Below, piece by piece: positions 29,244-54,000 of a stretch of 59,121 nt of DNA (positions are counted from its first letter, which is position 1; every line of letters starts with the position of its first letter). Below the pieces are notes generated by a model. That model was not told the origin of the DNA, did not search any database, and saw only the letters and a list, made by a program, of their open reading frames with translations. This stretch comes from a virus (lineage: Duplodnaviria > Caudoviricetes), in IMG/VR virus record IMGVR_UViG_3300025154_000106, positions 1 through 59,121 of that record; one strand, written 5' to 3'. The position numbers and the translations under genes are program-made.

Positions 29244-29519
29244 ATGTTACCAAACACATCTATGCCACGTAGTCCTATGCCCGGTGGGCAAGCACCTGCT
29301 GGTCAGCCACCGATGGGACAGCCACCGCAAGGTGGTGGACAGGGAGCTGATCAAGGTCAAGTAGTAGAAGCAATCAAGCAAGTTCTAACTAGGGTCAAAG
29401 CCTTAGCAGATCAGAACGGGATTGACTTCATGTCTATTGTGAATGAGATGGCGAGTTCAGGTAGTAAGGGTAAAGCACCCATGCCACCGCCACCTGTGCC
29501 CAGTCAGCCACCCATGTAG
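29244..29519 (+). CDS. Pro/Gln/Gly-rich small protein in its own inverted transcription unit
   Basis: TG-n-TATAAT (29213-29221), AAGGAG RBS, downstream hairpin at 29546-29568. Confidence 0.7.
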   Translation: MLPNTSMPRSPMPGGQAPAGQPPMGQPPQGGGQGADQGQVVEAIKQVLTRVKALADQNGIDFMSIVNEMASSGSKGKAPMPPPPVPSQPPM

Positions 29520-29545
29520 AGTTAGTAAAGTTCAGCCTATCATCG

Positions 29546-29568
29546 AGGGAAGTAACGATTACTTCCCT
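29546..29568. terminator. Hairpin between convergent genes, containing a variant of the dispersed palindrome
   Basis: AGGGAAGTAA-CGA-TTACTTCCCT. Confidence 0.55.
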
Positions 29569-29924
29569 TGTTTCATTTCAGCCAGTCGCATACGTATCTT
29601 AGTGTACATATCTTGCTGACTGTCACCGACAGAGACATACATATAATTAGCATTGAGTTCCTTTAGTATCACCTCTCTTCGTTTAGTAGCCTGTGTTTTA
29701 CTTCCCCTTATAGTAAGGGTATCAATGTATAAGTAACCATGAGGGGTAAGGATAACAGCAGGTACATACAGCCACTTGTTTCTCTTCTCATCCCCACCCA
29801 CCCATTTGTAGGGCAGGAAAGAATAACCTGTTTGTTTGATAGCATTGTAAAGGTTCTGTTCCCATCGTTCATGTGAATACTTTCTACCGAGTGGGTGAGG
29901 GGAAGTTGTATGATCAAATCTCAT
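29559..29924 (-). CDS. Hypothetical basic protein
   Basis: 121-aa coupled ORF. Confidence 0.5.
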   Translation of the reverse strand: MRFDHTTSPHPLGRKYSHERWEQNLYNAIKQTGYSFLPYKWVGGDEKRNKWLYVPAVILTPHGYLYIDTLTIRGSKTQATKRREVILKELNANYMYVSVGDSQQDMYTKIRMRLAEMKQGK

Positions 29925-31228: not shown

Positions 31229-31229
31229 C

Positions 31230-31523
31230 TTATAATCCCTTCTGTCTTAGAATTTCTTTATATCTTTCTCTTGTCATGTCAGGGGTAATCCTCTTGACAA
31301 TTTTCAGATCATCATAACCGATAGAGATAAGTTCTTCTAACAGATCCTTATACTCATCGGGGGTAGCTGGTTGTGTAGTTCTGTACCATCCTGATGTACA
31401 TGCACTATGTTGTCCGACAATTGCATAGCTCCACATGGTAGACAAGTCAAGCGTGCCTGGTTCAGCAGGGAATACAGCTACAATTTCTTTGCCATCCTTA
31501 CGAAAGATTACGGGGGTAGTCAT
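31230..31523 (-). CDS. Early hypothetical protein
   Basis: TTPVIFRKD..IVAVFP..YAIVGQHSAC pattern recalls small early/leading-region proteins. GGA RBS. Confidence 0.6.
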   Translation of the reverse strand: MTTPVIFRKDGKEIVAVFPAEPGTLDLSTMWSYAIVGQHSACTSGWYRTTQPATPDEYKDLLEELISIGYDDLKIVKRITPDMTRERYKEILRQKGL

Positions 31524-31526
31524 GGG

Positions 31527-31916
31527 TTATCCTTCCTGAATGTCGTTCAGTATTCTATTGCACACAATTTCAAAAGAGTACCATGCCAGCAGATTTTGAT
31601 TAGATGTATCCAAGATGAGGGGGTCAGTATCATCCCATCCATTGAGCATGGTCAATACATTCTCACCGTAGGAATCTGTTTCATCTTTGATAAGTTGATT
31701 GATGTCAGTCTTGAATTTCTTATACCATTTCAAGGTATCAGTATAATAGATCAACGCACCTACCATGCCAGAGATACACCCGTACTGTGTTACATCTTCG
31801 AGGAAGGAAGTAACATCCTCTTCTTGATTGACAATAGATACAACTTTCTTTTCGAGGGGGGTAAGTTCCTCATCTGTTCTGATTTTATTACGTACTAAGA
31901 AAAACATTTCACACAT
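31527..31916 (-). CDS. Acidic early protein, candidate DNA mimic
   Basis: LEDVTQYGCISGMVGALIYYTDT motif. AGAAAGGA RBS. Confidence 0.55.
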   Translation of the reverse strand: MCEMFFLVRNKIRTDEELTPLEKKVVSIVNQEEDVTSFLEDVTQYGCISGMVGALIYYTDTLKWYKKFKTDINQLIKDETDSYGENVLTMLNGWDDTDPLILDTSNQNLLAWYSFEIVCNRILNDIQEG

Positions 31917-32100
31917 CCTTTCTGTTTGTTTTGATCCAAGTTTTGATTACATCTCTACACTGACGTTCAAATCGGTAGTCAGTTTGGGGGTCAAGGTCAC
32001 CTGATTTTATTTGAGGTAAGCTATTGGCAACCGATTCCCAGAATTTATAGATAGCGTCTTCAGTTATTTGCATCAGTTCTTGATTAGTTATATCGTCCAT
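31909..32100 (-). CDS. Early hypothetical protein
   Basis: AGAAAGGA RBS before ATG 32100. Confidence 0.55.
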   Translation of the reverse strand: MDDITNQELMQITEDAIYKFWESVANSLPQIKSGDLDPQTDYRFERQCRDVIKTWIKTNRKDV

Positions 32101-32113
32101 TTGTTTTTCCTTT

Positions 32114-32341
32114 CTAGTTCTGTCTAGTAACTCTCTTGATTGAAAGTTCAAACGCCTGTCTTCCAAGTTCAAAGTATATAGTAGGTTCAGCGTTATCATT
32201 CCCATTACTACCAATGAATTGATTCTTTACTCTATCAGTGGGGAATCCTACATGGTACTCACTCATGCCAACCAGTCCCATCAAGGTATCATATATTTGA
32301 TTAAGTATTTCATCAGTCTCTATTCTTTTATTCATCTTCAC
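32114..32341 (-). CDS. Early hypothetical protein
   Basis: GGAG RBS, coupled. Confidence 0.5.
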   Translation of the reverse strand: MKMNKRIETDEILNQIYDTLMGLVGMSEYHVGFPTDRVKNQFIGSNGNDNAEPTIYFELGRQAFELSIKRVTRQN

Positions 32342-32471
32342 TTACTCCAAACTCTTCAATAGTATCTATCATAGCTGAAAGACTAGACTTTGCCTCATCA
32401 AGATAGTCCGACATACCATCAAGGTATTGAAACAAACTGTTCAAAGCTCTCAATAATTCTTTCTCTTCCAT
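32328..32471 (-). CDS. 47-aa acidic peptide, not in the ORF track
   Basis: AGAAAGGA RBS. Sequence MEEKELLRALNSLFQYLDGMSDYLDEAK...SEDE. Confidence 0.6.
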   Translation of the reverse strand: MEEKELLRALNSLFQYLDGMSDYLDEAKSSLSAMIDTIEEFGVSEDE

Positions 32472-32486
32472 TTTGTTTATCCTTTC

Positions 32487-32726
32487 TTACAGCATGGTCT
32501 CAATATTGTTACGAAGTTTAATATCTCTTGTAGCATGGGGTTTATATTGGAATCGAATCTCCGCACCCATAGCTGACATAAAAATCTTTGGCAACAAATA
32601 ATTATCATCATAAGATTCTAAGTCTACTGCACCACTAGCCACTATGCTTTCAGCTTTCTTTATAATCCATTCGTTCATGTCGGGGATCATTTCATTTACT
32701 TTAGATAGAAATTGTTCTTTGTTCAT
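32487..32726 (-). CDS. Early hypothetical protein
   Basis: AGAAAGGA RBS. Confidence 0.6.
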   Translation of the reverse strand: MNKEQFLSKVNEMIPDMNEWIIKKAESIVASGAVDLESYDDNYLLPKIFMSAMGAEIRFQYKPHATRDIKLRNNIETML

Positions 32727-32756
32727 GTTGTTGTCCTTTCTTATTCTTATCTTAGT

Positions 32757-32807
32757 ATGTCATGGTAGTAACTACCAGTGTAGAAAATCATATTACTACC
32801 ATGACAT
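32757..32807 (-). repeat. Perfect 15-bp intergenic inverted repeat with a TACACT loop motif
   Basis: ATGTCATGGTAGTAA / TTACTACCATGACAT. Confidence 0.8.
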
Positions 32808-32813
32808 TAATCC

Positions 32814-33434
32814 TTAGTGCATAGATCCATCAGCTAAGAATTCATACTCATTAGCAATAAGGGATTCCTTGATTGCTTCATCAGATGTCATATATTCATA
32901 GTCACGTTCAAGTTCCTTGTATATCTTATGACAATAATCCAATCGCCAGTCTTCCATCCACGATTCAAACTCATCTATTCTTTTTTGGTAGGGAGCTTTC
33001 ATGTCATCATATTCTTTTTGAGTAAGCTCACCATCATACATGAATTCTACATAGTCCACTTCAAATCTAGCAGTTCTCTCATGGGAATAGTAAGTTGATC
33101 CTCTGTGTATACTGAATCCGAATTCAATCAGTCCATCCATATACCAGTCGTATATATCCCGAAAGTTTTCTTTGATAAAGGTAGTAAGGATAGTATCAAA
33201 GTCTATTGACTTACATTCAAACACAGCCCCGTCCCCTTGATTTGAGAATCCAGAGAAATAAATACTTACATTATTGAATCCCATTTTTTGTAGTTCATCG
33301 GTATGATAATCAATCGTTGATTCATACCACCATGAGTCGTCTACATTCCATTCCCTATGTTTATCAATGACTTGTTCTTGTATGTCAGGGTCAAGCTCAT
33401 CAAATTTATACAGCTTAATAATTTCTTCTCTCAT
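32814..33434 (-). CDS. Highly acidic early protein, resembling a family found in phage/plasmid leading regions
   Basis: YKFDEL, WWYE, IYFSGFSNQGDGA, YEYMTSDEAI..ANEYEF.ADG motifs. AGAAAGGA RBS. Confidence 0.6.
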   Translation of the reverse strand: MREEIIKLYKFDELDPDIQEQVIDKHREWNVDDSWWYESTIDYHTDELQKMGFNNVSIYFSGFSNQGDGAVFECKSIDFDTILTTFIKENFRDIYDWYMDGLIEFGFSIHRGSTYYSHERTARFEVDYVEFMYDGELTQKEYDDMKAPYQKRIDEFESWMEDWRLDYCHKIYKELERDYEYMTSDEAIKESLIANEYEFLADGSMH

Positions 33435-33438
33435 TAGG

Positions 33439-33513
33439 TTATCCTTTCTCAAATAGTAAGGTATAAATTAGCATGATAAGAATGACAAAGATTACGAGGG
33501 GGAATAGTTGCAT
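33439..33513 (-). CDS. 24-aa single-pass membrane peptide, not in the ORF track
   Basis: MQLFPLVIFVILIMLIYTLLFEKG with AGAAAGGA RBS. Confidence 0.55.
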   Translation of the reverse strand: MQLFPLVIFVILIMLIYTLLFEKG

Positions 33514-33516
33514 GTG

Positions 33517-33861
33517 TTATCCTTTCTTTATCATTCTGAAAATTGAGTACGTCCATTCAGCAAATAGATCATCTAAATAATCACCCAACCCATCACCACA
33601 GGCACAGATGGTACTAGGGTCAACCTCACAATCAAACTGTACAAATAATAAGGAAAGATCATCACGTTGAAATGCCGCATAAAAATCATAGCAGTGACAG
33701 TAACCACCCCACTCATCCATAGCATCATACGTATTGAAGCATTGTAATTGATTGTCGGTAAAGATTAGAGACCAGTCCCCATTAACACCGCTCCCATGTG
33801 GAAGTTCATTAAGTAAGAAATCTATCAGCTCATCATCAGTAAAGTTATTAAAGTTTTTCAT
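33517..33861 (-). CDS. Acidic early protein
   Basis: AGAAAGGA RBS, LPHGSG motif. Confidence 0.6.
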   Translation of the reverse strand: MKNFNNFTDDELIDFLLNELPHGSGVNGDWSLIFTDNQLQCFNTYDAMDEWGGYCHCYDFYAAFQRDDLSLLFVQFDCEVDPSTICACGDGLGDYLDDLFAEWTYSIFRMIKKG

Positions 33862-33951
33862 TAGTTTATCCTTTCTTTATAGTAAGTTTATCCGATAGGG
33901 TAAGGATAAGACAGTGTAATTAATCCTATCCTTACCATGTAGAATGTCATG

Positions 33952-34344
33952 TTAGCAATTCCTTTGCCAATATTCTACGCCGTCAATCTCAACGCAAGAG
34001 TAATCCATTTTCAGATCATCGCATACACCATTCCAGTCAATATTAGATTCAATATAAGACGGTAAGTTATTCGGTAAGTCTCCAATGTCATATACCAATT
34101 CAATAAGATAATCATTCATGTATGAATTACGAATTAAAGTTTCGTCTAGATCAAGGTACTCTAATGTTTTCTTTAGTTGATCAACCGATTCTTGCAATTC
34201 GATAAAGTCTTCGTCGTCTTCGGGAGTCTCATCATCTATCATAGCATCAAGGTCAGATTGCATGTCATACAATAGTTCTAATAGCTTGCGTGGTTCGATA
34301 AAGTTTTCACTTGTAAAGTCAGATAGTTTGGTATAGTATTTCAT
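33952..34344 (-). CDS. ArdA-like acidic antirestriction (DNA mimic) candidate
   Basis: Very Asp/Glu rich. LPSYIESNIDWNGVCDDLKMDY resembles the ArdA C-terminal pattern. Confidence 0.5.
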   Translation of the reverse strand: MKYYTKLSDFTSENFIEPRKLLELLYDMQSDLDAMIDDETPEDDEDFIELQESVDQLKKTLEYLDLDETLIRNSYMNDYLIELVYDIGDLPNNLPSYIESNIDWNGVCDDLKMDYSCVEIDGVEYWQRNC

Positions 34345-34357
34345 TTCATAATCCTTT

Positions 34358-34597
34358 CTATTTCAGTTCAATAAATAAAATTTTAGATTGATAAGATACA
34401 TCATACAAGTATGACTCATGGACGGTTATAAAATTATCATCATCTTTAGCAATCATCATGCCATTATTGACCTTAGTTATTTTAAAGTTAGGTAAGTTGA
34501 ATGTCATACGTCCATCAAATTTATTCATACCTTGAATGATGATAGTATCTATTGCTTTATTATTCATAATATGATTAAGTTTTTCTAGGGTAGTCAT
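34358..34597 (-). CDS. Early hypothetical protein
   Basis: GAAAGGA RBS. Confidence 0.55.
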   Translation of the reverse strand: MTTLEKLNHIMNNKAIDTIIIQGMNKFDGRMTFNLPNFKITKVNNGMMIAKDDDNFITVHESYLYDVSYQSKILFIELK

Positions 34598-34631
34598 TAG
34601 ATTAATCCTTTCGTTTATTTATATCTATTGT

Positions 34632-34685
34632 AAGTAACTGTTACTTATAAGATAAGTGTAGGAAGTAACTAAGTAACGGTTACTT
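34632..34685. repeat. Pair of AAGTAAC-N-GTTACTT palindromes forming a long inverted repeat
   Basis: Copies at 34632-34646 and 34671-34685. Confidence 0.9.
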
Positions 34686-34694
34686 TCGTCCTGT

Positions 34695-34970
34695 TTACAT
34701 GTCCCATGTTTTATATACACCATAAACTTTCAGATCATACACGTTACAACCTAAGTTAATAATGTCAGGTCGCCATGTAAAATACGCCTCGTTGTTTTCA
34801 TCAGGACAATCAATAATAATATGGGAGTAGCTAGAATTTTTTGTTAGCTTTTCTTCCCATAATTGGAGTGCTTTTAACTCATCATTAGTTAGTCCTTGAC
34901 TATCACCGTTAACAATAAGAGGTAAGAAAAAGTCAGGTATTTTATAGGTATCAATTAGTTCTGTTTTCAT
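34695..34970 (-). CDS. Early hypothetical protein (IP...L.NGD.xGL..DE motif)
   Basis: GAAAGGA RBS. Confidence 0.6.
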   Translation of the reverse strand: MKTELIDTYKIPDFFLPLIVNGDSQGLTNDELKALQLWEEKLTKNSSYSHIIIDCPDENNEAYFTWRPDIINLGCNVYDLKVYGVYKTWDM

Positions 34971-35053
34971 TGATCAATCCTTTCATAATCAATCAATCCA
35001 GAGATAGATAATCCGAGTAAGATAAGAAATACAAGAGTAGTTATAACGTACAT
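34967..35053 (-). CDS. 28-aa single-pass membrane peptide, not in the ORF track
   Basis: MYVITTLVFLILLGLSISGLIDYERIDQ with AGAAAGGA RBS, ATGA-coupled to the next gene. Confidence 0.55.
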   Translation of the reverse strand: MYVITTLVFLILLGLSISGLIDYERIDQ

Positions 35054-35106
35054 GATAAGTCCTTTCTGATTGTCTAACCTAAGCTACAATCAAGGGTAAG
35101 AATAGA

Positions 35107-35367
35107 TTATAAATTTTCAGAGATAAGGTTAAGGAAGTCCTTATTATCTATGGGTTGAAAGTCAATTTTCATTAATGACATCTCACGAGCAAATAAATTA
35201 ATATGTTTTGATGTAGTAACGGAGAAAAACTCATTGACTTTATAGTATCCCTTGCCACTTATCCAACATGCAACCGCGACCCCGTAAGAAAAACAGACTT
35301 GACAATTATCCTTGATAAGGATGTGACAGTTATTATTAATAGTATCTAATCGAATATAGTTGTTCAT
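35107..35367 (-). CDS. First early gene, small protein with FSY..VA and SxTTSKHIN motifs
   Basis: GAAAGGA RBS, with minus-strand TATAAT near 35402-35407. Confidence 0.65.
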   Translation of the reverse strand: MNNYIRLDTINNNCHILIKDNCQVCFSYGVAVACWISGKGYYKVNEFFSVTTSKHINLFAREMSLMKIDFQPIDNKDFLNLISENL

Positions 35368-35599
35368 GTTATTATCCTTTCATAATTTCAATCTATACTC
35401 TTATTATAGGGATAAGAGATAAGATAAACAGTGTCATAAGTAATAAGAAAAGGATGACAAGGTTGGCATGATACTTGCATATTAAAGAAAGGGGATATAT
35501 AGGGGATAGAATAGATCAAGCGGTATGATGCTAACCTTAAGTGTTTTGACTTGGGCGATTGTCTATTCATTCTATGACTATTCATTTAATGAGTAGTTT

Positions 35600-35687
35600 G
35601 CAACGGGCGGCTTTCGGTTTAGCAACGGGCGGCTTTATTTGTACGCTTGGATTGTTACGATTGTGTTACTAAGTAACGGGCGGCTTT
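35600..35687 (+). repeat. Three direct repeats of AACGGGCGGCTTT in the long divergent non-coding region
   Basis: Copies ending at 35614, 35636 and 35687. Confidence 0.85.
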
Positions 35688-36003
35688 GATCGACGGGTAA
35701 GTTATATATAGGCATAGTAGGATGAAAGGATAAGACTGATGAGAGAGGGGGAGATTGCGATTGGGATTAGATTAGGTGGGGTAGGTAGTTTAGATTGGTT
35801 GTATTATTTGTATTTGTTGCTCCCCTATTTCCCACATTGAAAAAGTTATTAGAAAGAATAGGTTCAGTATAAGTTTTATTTATATTCCAGGCGTGAAGAG
35901 TTATTGAATTTTGTTGATTTAAAAAGCTCAGGCGTGCTCAAATAAGTTTTACTTATACTACGGGTGATGATGGTATTACTTATATAGATAGATCTTCTTC
36001 CTT

Positions 36004-36047
36004 CTCTAATATAGATTTAATGTACGGCTTACCCTTTTTGGTACAAT
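36004..36047 (+). promoter_or_regulatory. Tandem-box promoter 1
   Basis: CTCTAAT-atag-ATTTAAT, 20 bp, TACAAT with a TG extension. Confidence 0.65.
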
Positions 36048-36070
36048 AGATTGAGAAAGGAGAAAAGTAA

Positions 36071-36436
36071 ATGAATGAATGTAAGTTATGCGGAAGTAAG
36101 CCAATGAGTATCTATCATTATGATGGGACACACAAAAGAAATCCTGGAACTGGTTGTACTAATCCACATTGTCCACTGTATGAGGCAGAGTTATCTGAAG
36201 ACGAGTGGGAGAAGTTGATGAGTACTGCAGAACTCCCCAGACTATGGCTGAAAGTCGGACAAGATTTGAAGCATGATTGTAATGTCTATCTGGTAAGTGA
36301 AGATTCAGAAGGATGGATTGGATTCTTTTCAACGTACGGACAGGCCAAGGATCACGCTGAGTTCTTTTCCAAAATGTTTGGTGGAATCCCTATTGAGTAC
36401 TATGAGGAAGTTATTGTAGTAAGAGAAAAGAAGTAA
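36071..36436 (+). CDS. Zn-finger hypothetical protein
   Basis: CxxC...CxxxxC pattern. GAAAGGAG RBS. Confidence 0.6.
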   Translation: MNECKLCGSKPMSIYHYDGTHKRNPGTGCTNPHCPLYEAELSEDEWEKLMSTAELPRLWLKVGQDLKHDCNVYLVSEDSEGWIGFFSTYGQAKDHAEFFSKMFGGIPIEYYEEVIVVREKK

Positions 36437-36448
36437 TATAATAAGATC

Positions 36449-36575
36449 AATAGTACCCGGCAGGCTTAGGACTCCACAAGAACATGGGAGAAACCGCCGA
36501 CCGAGCCGGGTCGTCTCTGCTCTGTCTCAACAGGCATCAGAATTTCCCCTGCCAGTATTGGTGGGGGTTTCTTAT
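36449..36575 (+). ncRNA. Candidate structured small RNA
   Basis: TTGTAG-17-TATAAT promoter (36414-36442), GC-rich ACCCGGC/GCCGGGT stem, terminator hairpin near 36545-36575, no ORF. Confidence 0.5.
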
Positions 36576-36808
36576 TAACTCTTACGCATTAAGATGACCA
36601 TACAAACTATACATTTTTGTATAGTATATGCAATCGGATTGCCAAACTGTACAATAAAACCCGTCCAAAGTGCATAGTAACTCGTCATTCCTTGCACTTT
36701 AGTGTGAAACTCCCACATTATTCCTTTGAGTTCTGTGATGATCTACACGGAATACGTTTGTGTTTTGTGTACAATTTGTTCAGTACTGCTGATTAAATTG
36801 TAGGGAAA

Positions 36809-36852
36809 CTCTAATCTGGTTCTAATATAATCAGGATTATTAAACGTATAAT
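36809..36852 (+). promoter_or_regulatory. Tandem-box promoter 2
   Basis: CTCTAAT-ctgg-TTCTAAT, 20 bp, TATAAT, then AGAAAGGA RBS. Confidence 0.7.
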
Positions 36853-36875
36853 TTGTATATAGAAAGGAAGGTAAG

Positions 36876-37208
36876 ATGAACATAATCAAGATTGTAGTGG
36901 ATGGTGATCTACCGATAAGATGTGCATATTGTGACATACCGCTTAGATTGTGTATAAATAAAGTTAGCATGACACTAAACAGAACGGCTCTGCTTGAAAT
37001 GGAAACCCGCCCCTCATGGTGTCCGCTTGTTGTTGAGGATGTGTGCAGGTATGTTGGTGAATATGGTGGGTGTGACGAGCATGGAGATATGATTTTCTTT
37101 TCAAGAAAAACTGGATGTAGTGATGAACATATCCAAAAGATCATTGTACCAGATTATAAATTTTGTCCAAATTGTGGTAGGCCTGTCAAGTATGTGGAGG
37201 TGGAGTAA
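36876..37208 (+). CDS. Cys-rich Zn-binding protein
   Basis: CxxC, RPSWCPL and FCPNCG motifs. Confidence 0.65.
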   Translation: MNIIKIVVDGDLPIRCAYCDIPLRLCINKVSMTLNRTALLEMETRPSWCPLVVEDVCRYVGEYGGCDEHGDMIFFSRKTGCSDEHIQKIIVPDYKFCPNCGRPVKYVEVE

Positions 37209-37624
37209 TGGAAAAATTGAAAGACTGCCCGTTTTGTGGAAAACATAATCTATGGACTTATCGTGGTACTTTTGCACCCGAAGAATATAGGCATGTAAAA
37301 TGTGCTGAAGATCCAAAAGAAGATGATGGCTGTGTTAGTGGCGTATCAGTATCTACTTGGAATAAAAGACCCATCGAAGATGCCCTCACTGCTACCATAG
37401 CACAGAAGGACGCTGAGATTGAGAGGTTGACACAAGAAAACGCATGGCTGACAGAAAAGGCATTGATGACACCTGATGAACTTGAACTAATGGAAAAACT
37501 GAAGCTGCTTTATGAAGCATGTATGAAAGCCGACCTAGAGGGAGAATTGTCAGAATATATTGACGGTTCAATTCTTGATAATGTCAGTGAAACATTAAAA
37601 ACACTAGAGGTGAACGATGACTGA
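37208..37624 (+). CDS. Lar-family restriction-alleviation-like Zn-finger protein
   Basis: LKDCPFCG...C...C...WNKR followed by a coiled coil. Confidence 0.6.
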   Translation: MEKLKDCPFCGKHNLWTYRGTFAPEEYRHVKCAEDPKEDDGCVSGVSVSTWNKRPIEDALTATIAQKDAEIERLTQENAWLTEKALMTPDELELMEKLKLLYEACMKADLEGELSEYIDGSILDNVSETLKTLEVNDD

Positions 37625-37997
37625 ATTTACACCTGAATGGATTGAGGAACAAAAAAAATTGATGGAAGAATATAGTGCAGAGGGTGTGTTTGAAAATCCT
37701 AACGTTGACTATTCTAAAGAGTTAGATATTTTGTATGAATATTACCCAAACGCTTTATCAGAAATCCAACGTCTCCAATCACGTGTGCAGGAGTTGGAAG
37801 CCGAGCAAAGGTGGATACCTGTGAGTGAGTGGAAATTAGTAAGCTCGATTGATCTTTACTGGGTCGTTGATAATAATTTGTGCTACCATGAGGCATATAG
37901 ATTTGAAGGCAAATGGTACACATATTCTGGTGATAATCGCATTTACCCAACACATTATAGACAACTACCCAAACCCCCAAAGGACAGATCACAATGA
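37617..37997 (+). CDS. DUF551-like protein
   Basis: WIPVSE...THYRQLPKPP. Confidence 0.65.
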   Translation: MTEFTPEWIEEQKKLMEEYSAEGVFENPNVDYSKELDILYEYYPNALSEIQRLQSRVQELEAEQRWIPVSEWKLVSSIDLYWVVDNNLCYHEAYRFEGKWYTYSGDNRIYPTHYRQLPKPPKDRSQ

Positions 37998-38110
37998 CCC
38001 ACTTCTGGATTGGCTTCGTCTGGTTTGTTATCGGAGCATTTGTAGGAGCAGTAGCTATGTCTTGGTTTGTTGCTGCTGGGAATGACGATATGAGAGCAGG
38101 GAGAAAGTAA
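37994..38110 (+). CDS. 38-aa membrane peptide, not in the ORF track
   Basis: MTHFWIGFVWFVIGAFVGAVAMSWFVAAG..., coupled at both ends. Confidence 0.55.
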   Translation: MTHFWIGFVWFVIGAFVGAVAMSWFVAAGNDDMRAGRK

Positions 38111-38760
38111 TGGCAACTATATTGATTATCAGTAACAATGCTTATCTTGCAGCGTTGGTAAAGAAGACCATGTTATATGAAGGACATGATGTAGAGATAG
38201 CCTATGATCTAATATCAGGAAAGGATCTGTGTGTAAAGTCTACCCCGGACTTGATCGTTACAGATTGGGAAACATTTCAGATATGTGCATTTGATTACAT
38301 CAAGAAAGTAAGCTCAGCTCCTGTTATTGTTATGATGGAAAACCCACGTTATGCTATTACTGAAGAAGTAGTCTGGTGTTTGAATGATGGTGCTGATGAT
38401 GTTGTCGAGTTTCCTTTTCATCCTGCAGAACTGGCGGCCCGTTCCCGTGCACTATTACGAAGACATGCTAATAAGAAAACTTTACAGGTAGGAGATCTAA
38501 ACCTTTCATGGAAAGGACAGCTGCATTATACAGACAGGACTATCATTCTTACTGCCAGAGAGTTTGACTTATTGAAAGTCTTTATGCTACATCCGGGCCA
38601 GGCTCTGTCAAAAGAATTGTTGTCAACCAGTGTATGGGGGGATACGTATGGAATGGACAGTAAGCAGCTGGATATTTACATAGGAAGGTTGAGAAGTAAG
38701 ATAGGAAGTGATAAGATAAAGTCTATACGAGATTATGGTTGGATGCTGGAGAACAAATAA
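38110..38760 (+). CDS. Orphan OmpR/PhoB-family response regulator with an atypical receiver domain
   Basis: PDLIVTD, GADD, ELAARSRALLRR, LTAREFDLL, VWG, LDIYIGRLRSKI, IKSIRDYG. Confidence 0.9.
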   Translation: MATILIISNNAYLAALVKKTMLYEGHDVEIAYDLISGKDLCVKSTPDLIVTDWETFQICAFDYIKKVSSAPVIVMMENPRYAITEEVVWCLNDGADDVVEFPFHPAELAARSRALLRRHANKKTLQVGDLNLSWKGQLHYTDRTIILTAREFDLLKVFMLHPGQALSKELLSTSVWGDTYGMDSKQLDIYIGRLRSKIGSDKIKSIRDYGWMLENK

Positions 38761-38996
38761 TGTGGTTAGCTACTATTGATAGAAGGTTATTGCTTGAGTT
38801 GTTGGGTGAGCTGTTGGGAAACCAGCAGGCTTTTACCGATTTGGTATCTGCCATACTTGAAAGAATCAGACAGGATGAAAGTGATCTGGCTGAAGACCTG
38901 ACAGATACAATTATTGAGTACTCTTTACGAGTGCATGGTGATGTTGCAGCTAAGATACATCAAGAAGTACTAAGACAGAAAGCGAGATTGAATTGA
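38760..38996 (+). CDS. Hypothetical helical protein
   Basis: TAATG-coupled to the regulator gene. Confidence 0.55.
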   Translation: MWLATIDRRLLLELLGELLGNQQAFTDLVSAILERIRQDESDLAEDLTDTIIEYSLRVHGDVAAKIHQEVLRQKARLN

Positions 38997-39739
38997 GCGA
39001 AACAGTTCAGATAAAATTAGAAGGACAACCGAAATGCCCTGTGTGTGGACAGGGTAGAGTAGAAGATGGTCGTGGATATGGAACAAAGTTTCTCGGAGTA
39101 GAGTTATATTATGCTCTTTGCAGGATCTGTGGGAACTATTGGCTCGTAAATCGTATGACGGATGAGTTTACGGACGAGTATTACGAGACAATCTACAGGA
39201 AAATCACTTCTCCAACAGAGGAAATGAAGGAAAGGAACGTAGAATTCGAGAACTTACGTGCACAATACCAGCTTGAATTCCTCAGACAGCACCATATTGA
39301 TGGAAAAGTTGTTCTAGATGTTGGTTGTTCACTGGGAATTCTGATACAAAAGCTGAAAGACGAACTGGATTGCACAGTTTTTGGGGTAGATAAGAACAAA
39401 ACAAGTGGTATTCCATGGATTTTGCCAGACATTTCTGCAGTTGAAGACGAAAGTGTAGACGTTTTGATCCTCTCACACGTTCTCGAACACCAAAACCACC
39501 CCCTAAAGTTCCTCCAAGATGCCATGAAGAAGCTAAAACCGGGTGGAAAGGTACTGTTGGACATGCCAAACTCCAATGTAGACTCACTTTCCTTCCGTTT
39601 ACACCACCCAATAGCCTTCACATGGGCAGGATTGCAGTATTTTGTGGGTTTATTGGGGCTGGAAATAGAAGATACCCTGTGGTATGACCCATTTTCAACC
39701 CCAATCTTGATAAGTATGATGGTTTACTTGAATAGTTAG
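38993..39739 (+). CDS. Class I SAM-dependent methyltransferase with an N-terminal Zn finger
   Basis: CPVCG...CRICG, VLDVGCSLG, DVLILSHVLEH, LKPGG. Confidence 0.85.
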   Translation: MSETVQIKLEGQPKCPVCGQGRVEDGRGYGTKFLGVELYYALCRICGNYWLVNRMTDEFTDEYYETIYRKITSPTEEMKERNVEFENLRAQYQLEFLRQHHIDGKVVLDVGCSLGILIQKLKDELDCTVFGVDKNKTSGIPWILPDISAVEDESVDVLILSHVLEHQNHPLKFLQDAMKKLKPGGKVLLDMPNSNVDSLSFRLHHPIAFTWAGLQYFVGLLGLEIEDTLWYDPFSTPILISMMVYLNS

Positions 39740-39757
39740 AGGGCTTACGCCCTCTTT
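39738..39757. terminator. Hairpin terminator between convergent genes
   Basis: AGAGGGC-TTAC-GCCCTCT followed by TT. Confidence 0.65.
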
Positions 39758-40684
39758 CTACTCTTGTGGGTACACAGTCCCCTGAAATATGTCATTAGTT
39801 GGGGATAAGGGGGATGGGCTGTGTATTATTGGCTCTACAGCTACAATGGGACGCTTACTTTGTCTGCCAGATGTAGCAGTAATCTTTATAAATGCCCCAC
39901 CCAGCGGTTTTGGTACTCCTCCCCGTGTTACTTCCCATCCAACCGTGCCATCTCCATAGGATTGCATGTACCCAGGGGTACGTACATGGTGTTGGGTGTC
40001 GAAATACTGGTCTCCCTTGTTACCAAGCCTCTCTCGTGTTATTGGAATATGATAAGAATTATGCGAATGCCCGTTTATAACTACATCAGCATCTGGTAAG
40101 TAGACCGCCTGCCTATTTGTTTGTATTGCCCCCCGTGTTACTGGTGCTTCTCCCCCTGCTCCATGAAAGTATTTGATTTTTATTGCACTTCCCCCTGCTC
40201 CTGTCCCATCTTTGATCAGTGCTCTGATCCATCCTCCATATCCTCCGTGTTGTACATCTCCACCTTCCTTGTTTAGTTCCCTCACGATTCTGTCTGATAG
40301 GTATGTGTTTGCGTTCTTCAGAACAGCTAACTCGTGATTGCCTGGGGAGATAAGTTTCATCCACTTGGCGTAAGGACTAAGAAGTCCTGCTATGTCGTAG
40401 ACAACAAAGTCATAGTAATCTGCCCTACGATACTCAGGTCTGAGCATACTCATGTCTCGCCTGGGATCAAAGCGTCCCTGCATGGCATCTACTAGATCTC
40501 CGTTTATTACTATTGCTGCTTCTCTCTTGCTTGCCTCATCAAGGTCGGAGAGGAAAAGTTTTCTGTTGCTATACACACTGTCTACATGAACGTCAGAAGT
40601 GACCCAAATGTATTGTGTTTGTCCCACATCCAATGCTAGTTCAAGGGTAGTAACTGCCCCCTTCTGGCTTGTACCTATTATCAT
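39758..40684 (-). CDS. Calcineurin-like metallophosphoesterase
   Basis: SDVH, NGDLVD, GNHE, FHG and GHSH motifs. Confidence 0.85.
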   Translation of the reverse strand: MIIGTSQKGAVTTLELALDVGQTQYIWVTSDVHVDSVYSNRKLFLSDLDEASKREAAIVINGDLVDAMQGRFDPRRDMSMLRPEYRRADYYDFVVYDIAGLLSPYAKWMKLISPGNHELAVLKNANTYLSDRIVRELNKEGGDVQHGGYGGWIRALIKDGTGAGGSAIKIKYFHGAGGEAPVTRGAIQTNRQAVYLPDADVVINGHSHNSYHIPITRERLGNKGDQYFDTQHHVRTPGYMQSYGDGTVGWEVTRGGVPKPLGGAFIKITATSGRQSKRPIVAVEPIIHSPSPLSPTNDIFQGTVYPQE

Positions 40685-40761
40685 AATGCCTCCATCGTGA
40701 ACACATACCCCCTTATAATAACCTTTTTGGTACTAAAAGTCCACGAAACTCTAATCTTTTC

Positions 40762-41298
40762 TTAATGTAAATACAGGTAATCAGCAGCAGATTGAAAAAT
40801 TTTGGGGTCTTCTTTTAGTAATCCAATTCCTCTGTTGCACGCACCACACAGTAATCCACGAACTACATCAGTGGTATGACAATGGTCAACGTGTGCCTTT
40901 ATTGATTCTGAAAATTTATTCCCACATATAGCACACGAACCACCTTGATTTTCCATTAGTTTGATGTAGTCTTCTCTAGTTAGTCCATACTTGTATTTAT
41001 ACATTCTAAACATCTGTGCTTCTGGGTCTTGTTTGTTTTTTTCTCTGGCTTTTTTTAGTATCTCATCCCTGTTTTTACTGTATAGTTTTTTGTTTCTTTC
41101 CCTTTGATACGCCCTTCTTTTATCCTTTCGTTTTGGTTCTTCATAGTACTCATTCCAACACGGTTTACACATGTAAACATATCCACGTGTAGTGTTTTTG
41201 TCTTTAATAAATTCAGACGGGTTTTTATACTGTCCACATTTTGAGCATCTTAATAGATTTTCCATTGGATCTCCTTTGTATATAGACAATTTTACCAC
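40762..41298 (-). CDS. Endonuclease VII-family (His-Me) nuclease, probably a free-standing homing endonuclease
   Basis: CAIC, HVDHCH, VRGLLCGACNRGIG. AT-rich gene. Confidence 0.85.
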   Translation of the reverse strand: MVKLSIYKGDPMENLLRCSKCGQYKNPSEFIKDKNTTRGYVYMCKPCWNEYYEEPKRKDKRRAYQRERNKKLYSKNRDEILKKAREKNKQDPEAQMFRMYKYKYGLTREDYIKLMENQGGSCAICGNKFSESIKAHVDHCHTTDVVRGLLCGACNRGIGLLKEDPKIFQSAADYLYLH

Positions 41299-41323
41299 CT
41301 TTGTTATCTATATACAAGAAAAA

Positions 41324-41368
41324 CTCTAATTTAGTTTTAATATTTAATCCATTAAATCGGAGTATTAT
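41324..41368 (+). promoter_or_regulatory. Tandem-box promoter 3
   Basis: CTCTAAT-ttag-TTTTAAT, 21 bp, TATTAT, then GAAAGGA RBS. Confidence 0.65.
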
Positions 41369-41390
41369 CTAGTTACGAAAGGAAGAAAAG

Positions 41391-42769
41391 ATGAATAAAT
41401 ATTCTGAGTGGTCAACGAGTGAACTTGAATATGAGTTAGAAGATGTGGAGTATGAGATTGAGATGTGTGAGTTCTGGTTATTATGTGGATCAGATACAAT
41501 GCCCAGAACAGATGTTCCAGTTCTTGAGCAGCTGAATAAGAGCAGGACAGACAAAGCTCTTGTTGAGGCAGAATTGGAAAGGAGAAAAGATGCCAATACC
41601 AGTGGGCAGTCTGAAGAAATGTAATTGTCGTGGACTAGCTGTGTATAAGTTATCTGGTCTGGGATGGTCGGTGTATTGTATAGAGTGTGAGAACAAGACC
41701 AGAGAATATAAATTGAAAGCTGATGCCCAGAAAGAATGGAATACAGAAGTATGTTATGAGGGGTATGACCCTTATGATGACTGGACGCTAGATCCAGAGG
41801 AAGGAAGTAGATAATGAATACAATACCAGAAGTTATATGGAGTTCATTTACATGCCAGACATGTTGGGGGAATGGGCAGCATTGGTATCTTGGAGAGATG
41901 GTAGAGTGTCCAATATGTCAAGGGCAAGGAGAGATCGTGGAGGTTATTGAGGTAAGAGATGGAAAGGAAATAGTAGAATATGAATGAAGAATGGGATGGG
42001 AAAGTAAGGTTTACTCCTGACTATGTTCCAATGAATCCAGATCCATATAATTTTGTGTGGATTGCTGCACCTATTGGAACTAATGAAATGATTGCAACTT
42101 CATCTGATGCAAGTTGGTCAAGTTTCCAGAAGCAGTATCCAAGTGTCTGTCCTAAGTGTAAGATAGCAGACGGGTTGGACGAGAACAGGAAATGCCAGTA
42201 CTGTGATTATGATGATTCCCCAAAGGAATGTACAAAGTGTGGTGGTGAGTACAGAGGAGAGGACTACACCAAACCACTATGTCAAACCTGCTATGATAAA
42301 AAGCAGGCCAAGAAATTGAAAGCCCAACAGAAAAGATGGGCAGAGCAGGAAAGAATACAACAAGAACAATACGAGAGAGAGCGTATTGCATGGCGAGCCA
42401 GTGTTGAAGAAAAAGATGGTGAGATTGTTGTTGACCTTGATCCTAACTACTATTGGGATTATGTAGAGCCAAAGAAACTTACACGTGAACAGGCATTGGA
42501 CTTGTGGGAAAAGTTGGGAAGGGTGTTGGGATATGAGTAGAAAAGTATATGAAGTAGTAGTCCATCTCAGTGGAACACAGATAAAGTATTTGCAGAAAAG
42601 ATTTCCCAAGGAGTGGAGCTTTACAAGAAAGTTGATCACATGGAAGTTAGCATCATGGTTATCACGTGAAGAGCAAGATGAACCAAGGATAAAAGAGATC
42701 ATTGAAGATCTGGAAGATTACTATGCAGTACCAACTGATCCACAGATTCCTGCTTTCCCCTTGCAATAA
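41391..42769 (+). CDS. Operon of five small genes, mostly Zn-finger (41391-41624, ~41589-41814, 41814-41987, 41980-42540, ~42533-42769)
   Basis: Coupled ORFs with multiple CxxC pairs. 41814-41987 is not in the track and has two CxxCxGxG motifs. Confidence 0.55.
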
Positions 42770-42789
42770 AGATAAATTCGTGCTACAGT
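42761..42789 (+). promoter_or_regulatory. sigma70/sigmaA-type promoter
   Basis: TTGCAA, 17 bp, TACAGT with a TG extension. Confidence 0.6.
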
Positions 42790-42795
42790 ATTAAA

Positions 42796-42853
42796 CAATC
42801 CTTTCTGAAAGAGAGAACCGGGTTACGTCCTTTCTCTGGTTCTCTCTCTATTT
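42796..42853 (+). ncRNA. Candidate ~58-nt sRNA with two anti-SD (UCCUUUCU) motifs
   Basis: TCCTTTCT at 42799-42806 and 42828-42835, the second in the loop of an AGAGAGAACC/GGTTCTCTCT stem. Confidence 0.5.
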
Positions 42854-42939
42854 AAGTAACGGTTGCTTTTCTTTTACTATACTACTATAATTAGTTATAG
42901 GCTAATGACAGTAGTATGTTTTAATTTAAGGAGATAACC

Positions 42940-43254
42940 ATGACATTTCAAGTACGTAATCAACCAACAGCTCAGACAATTATTGAACTATCCTCTGACT
43001 TTACTGGTATAACAGCAGTTACGACTGCAGAGACAGAGGTACAGCTGGCAGCTATTACCAACGCAGGTGGGTTTTGGGTAAAGGGACATCCAGACAATAC
43101 AGATACTGTATGGGTAATGTTTGAAGGACAGACCAAAGCATCTGCATTCCCACTCAATGCGAGTGAAGTAATGTATCTGGCTGTCAATGATCTAACTCAT
43201 GTGTTTATTGATGCAGACGTAAATGGTGAAAAAGTTTGTTGGATAAAGGCATAG
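42940..43254 (+). CDS. Small beta-sandwich virion accessory protein
   Basis: AAGGAG RBS. VKGHPDNTDTVWV motif. Confidence 0.5.
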   Translation: MTFQVRNQPTAQTIIELSSDFTGITAVTTAETEVQLAAITNAGGFWVKGHPDNTDTVWVMFEGQTKASAFPLNASEVMYLAVNDLTHVFIDADVNGEKVCWIKA

Positions 43255-51011: not shown

Positions 51012-54000
51012 ATGGTAGATGCCTTTTGGAAAACCGGACAGTTTGCTCAGTTGCTCAGTGCTGTACGAGAACAACGAGCCAAACAGTCTGCTATAAACAA
51101 CTATGCCTCCACATTTACTCAAGCAGTAAATAAATCGAAAACAGAAAAGCCTCCTGTAGATCCAAACAAGAAGGCTTTATTTGATTGGGGTCAGCGTACC
51201 TATGGAGTAAAGATACCTACCCAAACAGTAGATCCTGCTTTGAGGTTGGATGATAGAAAGCAAGCGTTACTTCACAACCAGTTCTTTGCTGATAAGCGAG
51301 TTGCTGACAGCATTGAACAGGCAAGAATAAGTGCATGGCAGAGAGACCAGACTTTCAAAAGTCAACAGGTAAAGAAAGATGTTCTTACTGGTAAGATAGA
51401 GAAGCCAGCTGGTCAAACTTTTGAAGAGTGGAATCAAGCAAGGCTGGAAGAAGAGAATGCTCTGGCAGCCAGCATCAAGTTCGATCCTGAACTAAAGCCT
51501 GGGGATAAATTGTATCTGGACTACAAACAAAATGTAGTAACCAACAAACCAACAGAGCTTGAGCTATTCAAGTACATGGGAGTTTACATTCCTGTTGAGA
51601 GAAACAAGGCAGGAAACTTAAGCTACCCTGAAGGATACGAAGATCTTGTTATTGATATGACCAAGCTGCAGGATGCTACCTATACACCAGAGGTAGATAT
51701 ATTCCTGCGTGGGTTAGAGTCCAAGTATGAAACAGCCAAGCCCCCAACTTTTGCTTCAAACATACAACCAACCGGGACACCAGCTTACTTGAATGTCTTG
51801 ACAAACGAGATAACAAATGATCAAACTCAGATCCCGTTGTATTGGGATCAGGATACAAAACAAGTTACCCAGTTTGAAGAAAACTATAAGGGTGAAAAGA
51901 ATAGTCCAGTTGTTCTAAATCAAGAGACATTGGATTCTCTTGGTACTGGATTACAACAGGCTATGCAAGTATACATAGCCAACGAACAGAACGCTGACTG
52001 GGGTGTAGGGTCTAACCCTGCAGCAGTATCCATGATAGCCCCTATTGTTACCAGAGAGAACGTATTGGATGGAGTAACAGTTAGGTTTCCATCTGCTACC
52101 AACCAACAGGAAACACAAACAGTAAACTTAGATCCAGTTACTAACGCACCAACCTTCTTAGAAAAGTTCCCAGAGAAGCCTGAGTTCATTAGAAATCTTC
52201 CTGAGCCATTGAGTAATGGATTGGCAGCAAACATATTCAGTGCCACCTGGTGGGAAGTAATGTGGGGTGGTAATGTAACCAAGCAGTTGATGAATACCCC
52301 AACAAGTAAGTTTATGAGTAAGCCAATATTGGGTACAGTATCCTTGAATACGGTTATGGCTGGAGCTGGGGTAGGCTTTACTCTTCTATATAATATACCT
52401 ACAACTCTAGTGAGACAAACGACCTGGCTATTTGGAAATGAGAAGGCTGGAGAAGACTTAAATAATTCTTGGGAGAACTTTGAAGATAAGCTAAGCGTAC
52501 TTCGACAAAGTTACAATATGGACAAAGCTAAGTCCATAAACAAGAATGAAACAAAGACCAACCAGATAGATGAAGCCAGAGCTACTACTCAGTCTATCAG
52601 TGAAGAGTTAGTGAAGTGGAGAAGCGGAACAGTAAAGGGATGGGACAAGTTATCTGATCAACAGAAGGTAACCCGTATTGCTGATCTGGAAGCTCAATGG
52701 GAAAAGTCATTGGAGTATGAAGCAGCCTTAAATAAACTCCAGGCAGACACCATTGGAAAGTTCTCAGAACAGGCTGGGTATTCTGCACAATATTACCGGG
52801 CTGGCAATCTTCCAGTAGCCACAGCTGAATTAGCTTACGGGTATGAGAAGTTGTACGAAGGGGCAGACTGGAATTTAGCCAAGCAATATGCTGGTTCAGT
52901 AAAAGAACACATGTTCACTCCTAATCTGCTTGATCTTCAGAATCGTGGAAGAATACCACAGGAGCAAATACACTTTATGTTGGGTGTACGTGGAATGTCA
53001 GAGCCTGAGATTTCATCTTTTGAACAGTTCATCAACAGCGGATATGTTACTTCCAATATCTTATCCAATGTAGACAATGATACGAAAGCATCCATGCAGC
53101 GTAACCAGACTACAACTGTGTTGGGTGCGAACATGTTATTCCTGCAGGATGTAGCCAAGAAGTCTATTGAGACTGGTCGTACTATGACTACGGCAGAGCA
53201 GTATGATTATCTTGTAGATGAGTGGTTACCAAAGTATCTATACAATTCAGCTACTAACCCCAAGAGGTTAGAGAATACTTACTACAATACTAACCAACAA
53301 CTAACCGCTGACATGGCGAATACAATGTTCCAGCAGTTACAGGTATCCAATAATTATCTGGCCATGGCCAGTCAATATGAAGAAGGAAGCCCAGAGCAGC
53401 AGGAAGTATTGAATAATGCCAAGACATGGATGGATGAGGCTTACCGATTAGGGGATAGAGTAATTGAATACCACTCCAGATCTGGTAATCTCAATCCTTA
53501 TGCAGCATGGACATATAATTTGAGTGAGGAAAAGAAGAACGAGTTCAGGAAGAATGTAGTAGAAGCTATGTTCCAGGCTGGAAGACTTCTTTCAATGGAA
53601 GAGATAACACAGATCTCCTACATTACGCAAGACCCAGCGTTAGAAATGTTGGGTGAGATATTCTTAGATGTAAACAACCTTGCACTCCCTATAGTTGCCG
53701 GGCTGAGTAAGTCATTGATAAAGAGCTTGGGTAGAGTAGCTATGAAAGTTCCATTCATAGGTAAATCTGCTACTGCAATCTCAAACAATACTATAGTAAA
53801 GACTTTACTTGATCGTTCAGTACAGACTGTAGCTTCAAAGCAGGGCAAGGCAGCTACAAATATCTTCTGGTCTGTTGCTCAGACCAAGCCAGCTACTGAA
53901 TCAGAGTTTGTAAAACAGGTATCCAATATTGCAGCATGGGCAAAGCAAGCTACCACAGTAACAGATGAGTTGACTGAAGGTGCAGCTAAGCTATTGAAAG

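Follow-up and report, generated by a model that had tools for sequence, protein, structure and literature searches.

A candidate small RNA gene at the middle/late boundary of an uncultured phage, with a predicted 5' end complementary to early ribosome-binding sites

In phage lambda, the promoter PR' lies directly before the late genes and is followed by a short terminated transcript, the 6S RNA (the PR'-tR' arrangement), with antitermination by Q; the c4 antisense RNA of phages P1 and P7 is small, masks a ribosome-binding region, is processed from the leader of the operon that it controls and has a single target region. Among bacterial small RNAs (sRNAs), LhrC is grouped with those that carry a UCCC motif. 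The Rsa sRNAs (RsaE and others), like the loops of RNAIII, are described as using an unpaired C/U-rich motif that pairs with several messenger RNAs (mRNAs) at their Shine-Dalgarno (SD) sequences and blocks formation of the initiation complex (PMC2790875). For DapZ, the promoter is reported to sit at or just before the point where the upstream gene stops, with the terminator of that mRNA shared (PMC9438474), and in the icaR mRNA of Staphylococcus aureus a pyrimidine motif in its 3' untranslated region (3'UTR) pairs with the SD sequence and blocks initiation (PMC3868564). The RegB endoribonuclease of phage T4, which cleaves GGAG, is described as inactivating early mRNAs as a class through their SD sequences (PMC1702504). 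Here we analyse IMG/VR virus record IMGVR_UViG_3300025154_000106, an uncultured phage sequence of 59,121 bases (the window; estimated completeness 90%, 41% G+C), and a candidate RNA element that occupies the 170-nucleotide (nt) gap between its last rightward middle gene and its first late gene. The reading that we favour, tentatively and short of calling it probable, is that of a small RNA gene in the 3' end of the rightward middle operon whose unpaired 5' end would pair with the early flavour of ribosome-binding site (RBS), AGAAAGGAU. Phage sRNAs and anti-SD sRNAs are known already; a phage RNA aimed at the early RBS class of its own genome would be new, and a limited literature search, which does not prove absence, turned up no publication describing a phage RNA that sorts messages by mimicry of the 16S ribosomal RNA tail.

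A preliminary description of this DNA had seen in the gap a candidate anti-SD sRNA at the start of the late region. That interpretation stands in part: a promoter, a 5' motif, a hairpin and a split between two RBS classes are present, whereas the loop copy of the motif did not hold up, a discrete RNA is a prediction and late timing found no support. The features on which the argument turns are the following (strand in parentheses).

42533 to 42769 (+): open reading frame (ORF) of a 78-amino-acid (aa) protein, the last gene of the rightward middle operon; its last two codons carry the -35 hexamer of promoter P1
42761 to 42789 (+): predicted promoter P1, with -35 TTGCAA (42761-42766), a 17-nt spacer (42767-42783), an extended -10 TGC (42781-42783) and -10 TACAGT (42784-42789)
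42797 to 42806 (+): invariant 10-mer AAUCCUUUCU, the candidate seed, at the predicted transcript start (about +1); reverse complement of the early RBS AGAAAGGAUU
42810 to 42847 (+): hairpin with a 13-base-pair (bp) stem (42810-42822 / 42835-42847), two G-U pairs and a 12-nt loop, UUACGUCCUUUC (42823-42834)
42828 to 42835 (+): loop copy, the second UCCUUUCU; mean probability of being unpaired 0.83-0.86; kept only in the close clade
42848 to 42860 (+): post-stem tail CUAUUUAAGUAAC, a weak U-tract with 4 T in its best 8-nt window
42854 to 42868 (no strand): AAGTAACGGTTGCTT, a copy of the genome-wide 15-bp palindrome AAGTAAC(C/G)GTTACTT
42863 to 42891 (+): predicted promoter P2, TTGCTT-17-TATAAT, upstream of the first late gene
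42927 to 42942 (+): SD AAGGAGA and ATG of the first late gene (42940-43254, 104 aa)
24252 to 35381 (-): 14 leftward early GAAAGGA RBSs, the proposed targets
35724 to 41968 (+): six rightward early/middle GAAAGGA RBSs

The letters at 42761-42789 confirm the promoter-like sequence TTGCAA-17-TACAGT that had been pointed out, followed by no ORF, and likewise the two copies of the motif (at 42799 and 42828) and the 13-bp stem at 42810-42847. The P1 spacer opens with the TAA stop of the 78-aa ORF, and no ORF of at least 30 aa starts within 42770-42939 on the + strand. The two hexamers match the sigma-70-like consensus at 8 of 12 positions, so P1 is absent from our consensus scan list, the threshold of which was 9 of 12.

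In the mechanism that we propose, P1, a host-type promoter with its -35 on the last codons of the 78-aa gene, would start transcription near 42797, and the leading ten bases of the RNA, AAUCCUUUCU, would stay unpaired. The 13-bp hairpin would then end both this RNA, at about 50-57 nt, and the upstream operon, with some read-through probable. The 5' end of the RNA would pair over 8-10 bp with the early RBSs, (A)GAAAGGAU(U), which would thereby be hidden from the 30S subunit, lowering translation of the early genes, and late genes that rely on AAGGAG or GGAGG would pair with it much less well. The sequences, as described below, show the elements themselves, the conservation of promoter, 5' motif and hairpin, the RBS split and the complementarity; production of the RNA, its 3' end, its timing and its action in trans are what we infer.

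The relatives used for comparison were L002 (a contig also held under other identifiers), L010, L006 (in virus record G001) and L015 (in the complete record G002), which share 91%, 93%, 64% and 43% identity with the window in the 104-aa protein, respectively; L006 also shares 77% identity in the terminase, and the gene upstream of the gap in L015 is homologous to that of the 78-aa protein. Between the window and L006, four conserved islands stand out against a near-random background.

Island (a): TTGCAATAA
Island (b): TGCTACA(G/C)T, exactly 17 bp past TTGCAA; the intervening spacer differs
Island (c): AATCCTTTCT, 7-8 nt past the -10, at the expected transcript start
Island (d): TTTAAGTAACGGTTGCTTTT, 3' of the hairpin

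Thus, P1 of L006 reads TTGCAA-17-TGC-TACACT, its hexamers kept at the 17-bp spacing while spacer and flanks have diverged. P1 is identical in L002 and L010, and in L015 the sequence TGCTACAAT, a counterpart of the extended -10, lies 15 nt past the homologous stop codon. An own promoter, as in Rsa- or LhrC-like anti-SD sRNAs, is therefore indicated by sequence conservation in L006 and, for the extended -10, also in L015. The seed 10-mer is identical in all four related sequences (window, L002, L010 and L006), and in folds of the short RNA from the window, L006 and L010 the 5' motif has a probability of 0.92-0.98 of being unpaired; it is this 10-mer, and not the loop copy, that supplies an unpaired, conserved, pyrimidine-rich motif. 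Furthermore, L010 differs within 42767-42860 by five substitutions and L002 by three changes, none of which touches the P1 hexamers, either motif copy or either stem arm; our own rough estimate puts the chance of such an outcome at about 0.002.

At the place of the hairpin, L006 has one of wholly different sequence and similar stability, AGGAAGAGC..UGGC-UUCAC-GCCA..GCUCUUUCCU (-20.9 kcal/mol, z -2.5). Conservation of structure was judged from separate folds; the L006 hairpin does not align, so an RNAalifold consensus of all four (MAFFT alignment) had no meaning. In the window, the minimum free energy (MFE) fold of the + strand (81 nt) reaches -21.4 kcal/mol (z -2.78), and that of the - strand comes close to it (-20.0 kcal/mol, z -2.86), which leaves little of the argument that the G-U pairs favour the + strand. 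The proposal that the loop copy is the active anti-SD also had to be dropped, since it is absent in L006: the check on loop conservation named beforehand failed, and the 5' copy passes it. The conserved seed thus appears to be the 5' copy rather than the loop copy, with a match that extends into 'AU' and so fits the RNA rather than the 16S tail. The expectation of conservation in related phages was borne out for the promoter and the 5' motif in L006, but there is no covariation and the motif is not kept in the L015 lineage.

The candidate target sequences form a class of their own. GAAAGGA, at 3-12 nt before the start of an ORF of at least 30 aa, occurs at 20 sites of the window, all between 24.2 and 42.0 kb. 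When gene classes were tallied on a hand-curated start list, it preceded 12 of 25 early leftward genes and 5 of 12 early rightward genes, as opposed to none of 24 late and none of 14 replication genes (Fisher p = 5e-7), that is, 17/37 early versus 0/38 late or replication genes; GGAG was found upstream of 16 of the 24 late genes. The two RBS classes of the preliminary description were thereby confirmed, with 14 leftward GAAAGGA sites. In G001, where the tally covers early genes, there are 19 such RBSs in the same early class. The early/late split is real, is repeated in the genome of L006 and is independent of what the RNA does. Together, the SD motifs of the phage tile AGAAAGGAGGTGAT, from which it follows that the host 16S tail probably ends ...CCUCCUUUCU; a tail of this sequence is common (B. 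subtilis type). As far as the motifs indicate, the early class uses the distal part of this inferred tail and the late class its core.

The complementarity between the element and this class is real. TCCTTTCT, found at 42799-42806 and 42828-42835, occurs 18 times on both strands of the window against 2.94 expected, a number that none of 100 shuffles reached, and 14 of the 18 copies are RBSs read from the opposite strand. The reverse complement of the seed 7-mer is present in 14 translation initiation regions (TIRs) of the window and 15 of G001, and the SD regions of several mRNAs are complementary to the motif, as in the known anti-SD sRNAs (20 RBSs in the window, 19 in G001). The duplexes predicted for the 14-nt 5' end had median energies of -10.9 kcal/mol with early leftward and -10.1 with early rightward TIRs, as against -6.4 with late and -6.95 with replication TIRs (Mann-Whitney p = 0.002), a preference for early TIRs that follows from the RBS split and adds no independent support. 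Of the 39 RBSs of the window and G001, 22 have T directly 3' of GAAAGGA, 11 have A, 5 have G and 1 has C, an excess of T with a binomial p = 3e-4 against a T frequency of 0.285. In the RNA, an A precedes UCCUUUCU and pairs with this T; the inferred 16S tail has C there, which favours G. The preference for T is the one observation that separates pairing with this RNA from ordinary SD use. Pairing of the RNA with early RBSs is the best explanation that we can offer, because the invariant unpaired 10-mer, which opens the transcript of a conserved promoter, can form 9-10 bp with the early RBS and only 5 bp with the late SD.

The predicted RNA resembles the Rsa RNAs of low-GC Gram-positive bacteria in being short, hairpin-ended and equipped with a C/U-rich anti-SD motif. 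It differs from them in that there is no sequence or structure homology, in that UCCUUUCU stands at the extreme 5' end whereas the Rsa UCCC motifs lie in loops, and in that the element is phage-encoded and has the phage's own early genes as a class for proposed targets. The Rfam model of LhrC scored 15 bits against the window (cut-off 110, E 8.8), and no Rfam covariance model reached its gathering score anywhere in the window; with an E-value threshold, the best match had 20.6 bits against a cut-off of 60 (E 1.1). As in DapZ and MicL, the promoter lies at the end of the upstream coding sequence; sharing of the terminator with the upstream mRNA, the other hallmark of DapZ-type 3'-embedded sRNAs, is something that we infer. 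Unlike these Hfq-dependent, enterobacterial RNAs with U-rich terminators, the element has a weak U-tract. The likeness to icaR is that the motifs lie in the 3'UTR of an operon three of whose five genes (41391, 41590 and 41980) have GAAAGGA RBSs. However, icaR targets the mRNA of which it is part, generating a substrate for RNase III, whereas here there is a separate conserved promoter and most of the matching RBSs are on other transcripts, from the opposite strand. RegB is a protein nuclease and not an RNA; what is shared is the logic of shutting off early messages as a class. Nothing RegB-like was identified in this phage.

How the transcript would end is less clear-cut than how it would begin. 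Intrinsic terminators were called on a G+C-rich stem, a loop of 3-8 nt and a post-stem tail with 5 or more T among its first 8 nt. By these measures the window hairpin fails, with its 12-nt loop and the tail CTATTTAA, and is missing from the scan list; for L006 the scan lists only the inner 6-bp stem, with the tail CTCTTTCC. Clear terminators of this phage have T-runs directly behind the stem, as at 4127-4160 (GGGCAGG..CCTGCCC TTTTATT) and also at 36546 and 29544. The hairpin lacks a good U-tract, so the discrete 58-nt RNA that had been envisaged stays a prediction. In our reading, the hairpin probably ends both the upstream operon transcript and the P1 transcript. UUUAA(G/A)UAAC in the post-stem tail is common to all four relatives, and we ascribe the conservation 3' of the hairpin to a DNA site and a promoter, not to an RNA tail, because the palindrome copy there overlaps the -35 of P2.

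The third lineage, L015, preserves the arrangement in a longer middle/late gap (339 nt). Its order is TGCTACAAT, about 90 nt with hairpins, a palindrome copy, TTACAT-17-TGC-TATAAT, a two-hairpin leader and then TGTATAAT, the SD and the ATG. The unit of about 90 nt behind TGCTACAAT (1173-1270) ends in a GGGAGGG..CCCUCCC hairpin and a U-run; behind the second promoter, 1373-1462 forms a two-hairpin leader or small RNA (-43.4 kcal/mol, z -7.5) with a CU-rich linker, GUCUCCUUCUC. The early RBSs of G002 read GAAAGGAG(A), and the 7-mer of its gap whose reverse complement is commonest in TIRs is UCUCCUU, AAGGAGA being present in 10 TIRs. Judged by these three lineages, the layout of promoter, short structured unit, palindrome and promoter is old. 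The UCCUUUCU seed is apparently not, as L015 keeps the layout without the motif. A layout shared with so distant a relative favours a real small transcription unit or leader at the middle/late boundary. The CU-rich stretch may track the RBS flavour of each phage, a suggestion that comes from a single comparison in which AAGGAGA is a generic SD. Extending it, we consider a bolder version of the proposal, rather unlikely as it stands: an RNA of about 55 nt at the middle/late boundary, mimicking the 16S end, would mask a private early RBS flavour, AGAAAGGAU, and shift ribosomes to late messages, RNA and flavour drifting together (AAUCC/GGAUU here, GUCUCC/GGAGAC in the L015 lineage).

The palindrome at the 3' border of the element recurs throughout these genomes. 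With at most one mismatch, the window has 11 copies and G001 has 10 (shuffles, 0), and G002 has 8 (control, 0); a 12-mer version with at most two mismatches gives 27 matches against 4.3 expected. The 15-bp copies of the window start at 4106, 12956, 19082, 23806, 27231, 29550, 30556, 34632, 34671, 42854 and 57267. They occur within and between genes, several are syntenic across related phages, and their central G is mostly found on the coding strand (for 7 of 9 window copies and 7 of 10 G001 copies, by our own count). One copy lies in the middle/late gap of all three lineages (window, L006 and L015). The palindrome is probably the site of a conserved dimeric DNA-binding protein. At 12942-12970 and at the syntenic site of G001, inside the late region, TATAAT (in G001, TACAAT with TGG) stands 2-6 nt before a perfect palindrome, an arrangement reminiscent of an internal late promoter whose start site coincides with an operator. 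Direct repeats at 35600-35614, 35622-35636 and 35673-35687, which read (G/T)CAACGGGCGGCTTT and GTAACGGGCGGCTTT in a 700-nt divergent control region, share their left half (AGCAACGG / AGTAACGG) with the palindrome and may be iterons or half-sites.

The TATAAT of P2 is kept in all four relatives. In L010 (1425-1445), a 15-nt deletion takes away the palindrome's right half together with the P2 -35 and spares TATAAT, and a contig from run X5 has a 15-nt deletion at the same place. This natural deletion indicates that the right half of the palindrome and the P2 -35 are dispensable in the L010 lineage. In MFE folds of the late leaders, GGUUGCUUUUCUUUU pairs with AAGGAGAUAACC in the window (42861-42876 with 42926-42939), UUUUCCCA with the start codon region in L006 (6105-6180), the 5' UCCUU with AAGGA in L010, and ACCUCU with AGGAGGUG in L015 (1455-1500, z -5.6). 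Transcripts from upstream promoters may therefore be translationally closed at the first late gene, a weak indication from folds whose partners differ per lineage.

Several observations weigh against a trans-acting RNA. The loop copy of UCCUUUCU is missing in L006, whose loop is UUCAC. The seed is carried by two diverged lineages only, and since seed and RBS are invariant in both, true covariation is lacking; the 10-nt identical run between the window and L006 is itself merely moderately unlikely, with an estimated chance of about 0.01. In L015 the P1-proximal unit lacks a CU-rich seed, and the CU-rich stretch lies in the next unit, partly paired. The seed corresponds to 8 nt of a common 16S tail and would also touch host SDs and some late SDs; indeed, 5 of the 24 late TIRs reach -9 kcal/mol or lower with the 5' end. 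The excess of T behind GAAAGGA might also stem from AT-richness of the spacer or from avoidance of SDs that bind too strongly. P1 looks like an ordinary, constitutive host-type promoter, so that the late timing proposed in the preliminary description is unsupported. Moreover, the sequence behind the hairpin is CUAUUUAAG, with 4 T among 8 nt, in the window and GUUUAAG in L006; because the U-tract is weak in both, termination may be leaky, in which case P1 transcripts could run into the late genes and the element would be a leader.

A structured leader or attenuator of the late operon is accordingly the main rival, a serious one, though we still consider it somewhat unlikely. P1 would be the late-operon promoter; the hairpin would serve as a terminator, either regulated or leaky, or would insulate against transcription that reads through out of the middle operon; the pyrimidine-rich stretches would act in cis, closing the first late ribosome site on transcripts that start upstream of P2, and the short RNA would be a by-product, much as the 6S RNA of lambda is of PR'-tR'. 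The element does directly precede the first late gene, its U-tract is weak, P1 may be the main promoter in L010, where the P2 -35 is deleted, and L015 repeats the order of promoter, terminator and promoter. The MFE folds of four sequences also pair the SD or start region with sequence upstream of the P2 start; however, these cis pairings differ per lineage, and base composition by itself will pair purine-rich SDs with T-rich promoter spacers. The 10-mer itself fits the late SD poorly (UCCUU:AAGGA, 5 bp) compared with the 9-10 bp of the early RBS, for which reason masking of the late SD in cis by the 10-mer was rejected, and P2 keeps its TATAAT in all four relatives. A lambda-like unit found no support either: the upstream proteins have no Q or other family matches, no antiterminator was recognised among the family searches and the fold model, and no TAnnnT-like, that is -10-like, pause hexamer is visible by eye in the first transcribed bases (AATCCTTTCTGAAAG). 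It is less probable, and on balance unlikely, that the hairpin is a plain terminator of the upstream operon in chance pyrimidine-rich surroundings and that TTGCAA...TACAGT is no working promoter. The match to consensus at only 8 of 12 positions agrees with this, as does the double role of TTGCAATAA as conserved C-terminal Leu-Gln-stop codons; the region is of low complexity, its AG and CT runs making chance occurrences of such motifs likelier, and the - strand folds about equally well. Yet the two hexamers, the TG and the exact 17-bp spacing survive across a diverged spacer, TGCTACAAT is present in L015 too, the 10-mer is invariant amid varying neighbours, two copies of TCCTTTCT lie within 37 nt where about 1.5 are expected per strand in 59 kb, and by scan criteria the hairpin is a poor terminator.

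Control at the DNA level would instead have the 10-mer and the palindrome bind phage regulators (for example the small protein encoded upstream, or the OmpR-like one) that switch P1 and P2, the likeness to RBSs being incidental. The palindrome, genome-wide, conserved in three lineages and overlapping the P2 -35, and the presence of an OmpR-type regulator gene suit this idea, which we nevertheless regard as improbable: the 10-mer is non-palindromic, has no partner half-site, lies downstream of the -10 at the transcript start and, except at 57899, is not repeated outside RBS contexts on that strand. Least probable of all, and to our minds very much so, is a decoy of the 16S 3' tail that titrates a host or phage protein, such as a ribosome-targeting nuclease, without pairing to mRNA. 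Its basis is the 8-nt identity with the inferred host anti-SD tail, together with the tiling of AGAAAGGAGGTGAT by SD motifs; only those 8 nt are common, the bases 5' of them differ from the tail (AA vs CC/CU), and there is no candidate factor. Further candidates were rejected: the start of a leftward gene at the motif (neither the window nor L006 has a start codon at a suitable distance), a conserved leader peptide (a 24-codon TTG frame in L006, none in the window), stabilisation of the mRNA by a 5' hairpin (the 5' end has about 13 unpaired nt) and a promoter on the - strand (not conserved in L006).

The boundary studied here lies within the following gene map.

42940 to the end of the record and 1 to 14647 (+): late and structural genes
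46036 (+): terminase gene, in the late/structural block
48094 (+): portal-like gene, in the late/structural block
14.6 to 24 kb (-): replication genes (RecA-like, family A DNA polymerase, DnaB-like)
24 to 35.4 kb (-): early genes, small and many
36 to 42.8 kb (+): rightward early/middle genes, including an OmpR-type regulator, a methyltransferase and small Cys-rich proteins

The OmpR-type response regulator is encoded at 38110-38760 (Trans_reg_C, E 5e-18; its receiver domain is weak, under the Pfam cut-off). A giant ORF of at least 2703 aa at 51012-59120 extends past the end of the record and matches no Pfam family at E 0.01 or better. The 78-aa protein has orthologues in L006 (5755-6012, 46% identity) and L015 (892-1158, 35% identity, E 5e-10). 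Family searches with it gave none, a homologue search returned only itself, the Atlas was uninformative, and its AlphaFold model is of low confidence (predicted local distance difference test score, pLDDT, 57), which leaves a ribbon-helix-helix fold a guess without support. A tRNA scan of the window found none, a DNA search of the phage collection gave no match to the window, and the relatives returned by a terminase search were all below 25% identity, so that the phage has no cultured relative by these searches. One protein search with the 104-aa protein gave no match, and no relatives were obtained for a 172-aa neighbour protein.

Sampling of this phage group was extended through the 104-aa protein, for which 16 further homologues at 62-70% identity (P0002-P0017) were found. 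One of 66% identity, P0004, is filed under a Candidatus Dojkabacteria metagenome-assembled genome (MAG), on a 4.9-kb contig. The 12 sequencing runs with more than one fifth of the words of the stretch are all DNA, 11 labelled as groundwater metagenome and one as soil metagenome; together with the P0004 assignment, these labels are a lead on host and habitat only. One run labelled cDNA, but marked as probably DNA, has a contig of 151 nt that covers 42672-42822, from which we conclude nothing. A metagenome scan for relatives returned only near-identical loci, a genome scan returned one distant MAG locus without the element, and a 20-mer block was located solely in the contigs of L006 and L002. 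Loci L003, L004, L014 and L016-L039 have no comparable intergenic region upstream of the gene and were excluded from all counts. Matches to the pattern of P1 plus seed in L043-L045 proved to be the RBS and ATG of opposite-strand genes in unrelated AT-rich contigs and were discarded as chance hits.

If the anti-RBS reading is true, the element would be an RNA counterpart of T4 RegB, in which one short RNA switches off one class of messages by RBS flavour, which would amount to a translational timer both simple and portable. That early genes in this phage group rely on one part of the SD sequence and late genes on another would then be explained as well. The RBS split itself, conserved in two phages, does not depend on the action of the RNA. 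Together with the layout common to three lineages, it marks the regulatory centre of the late-gene switch in an uncultured phage group.

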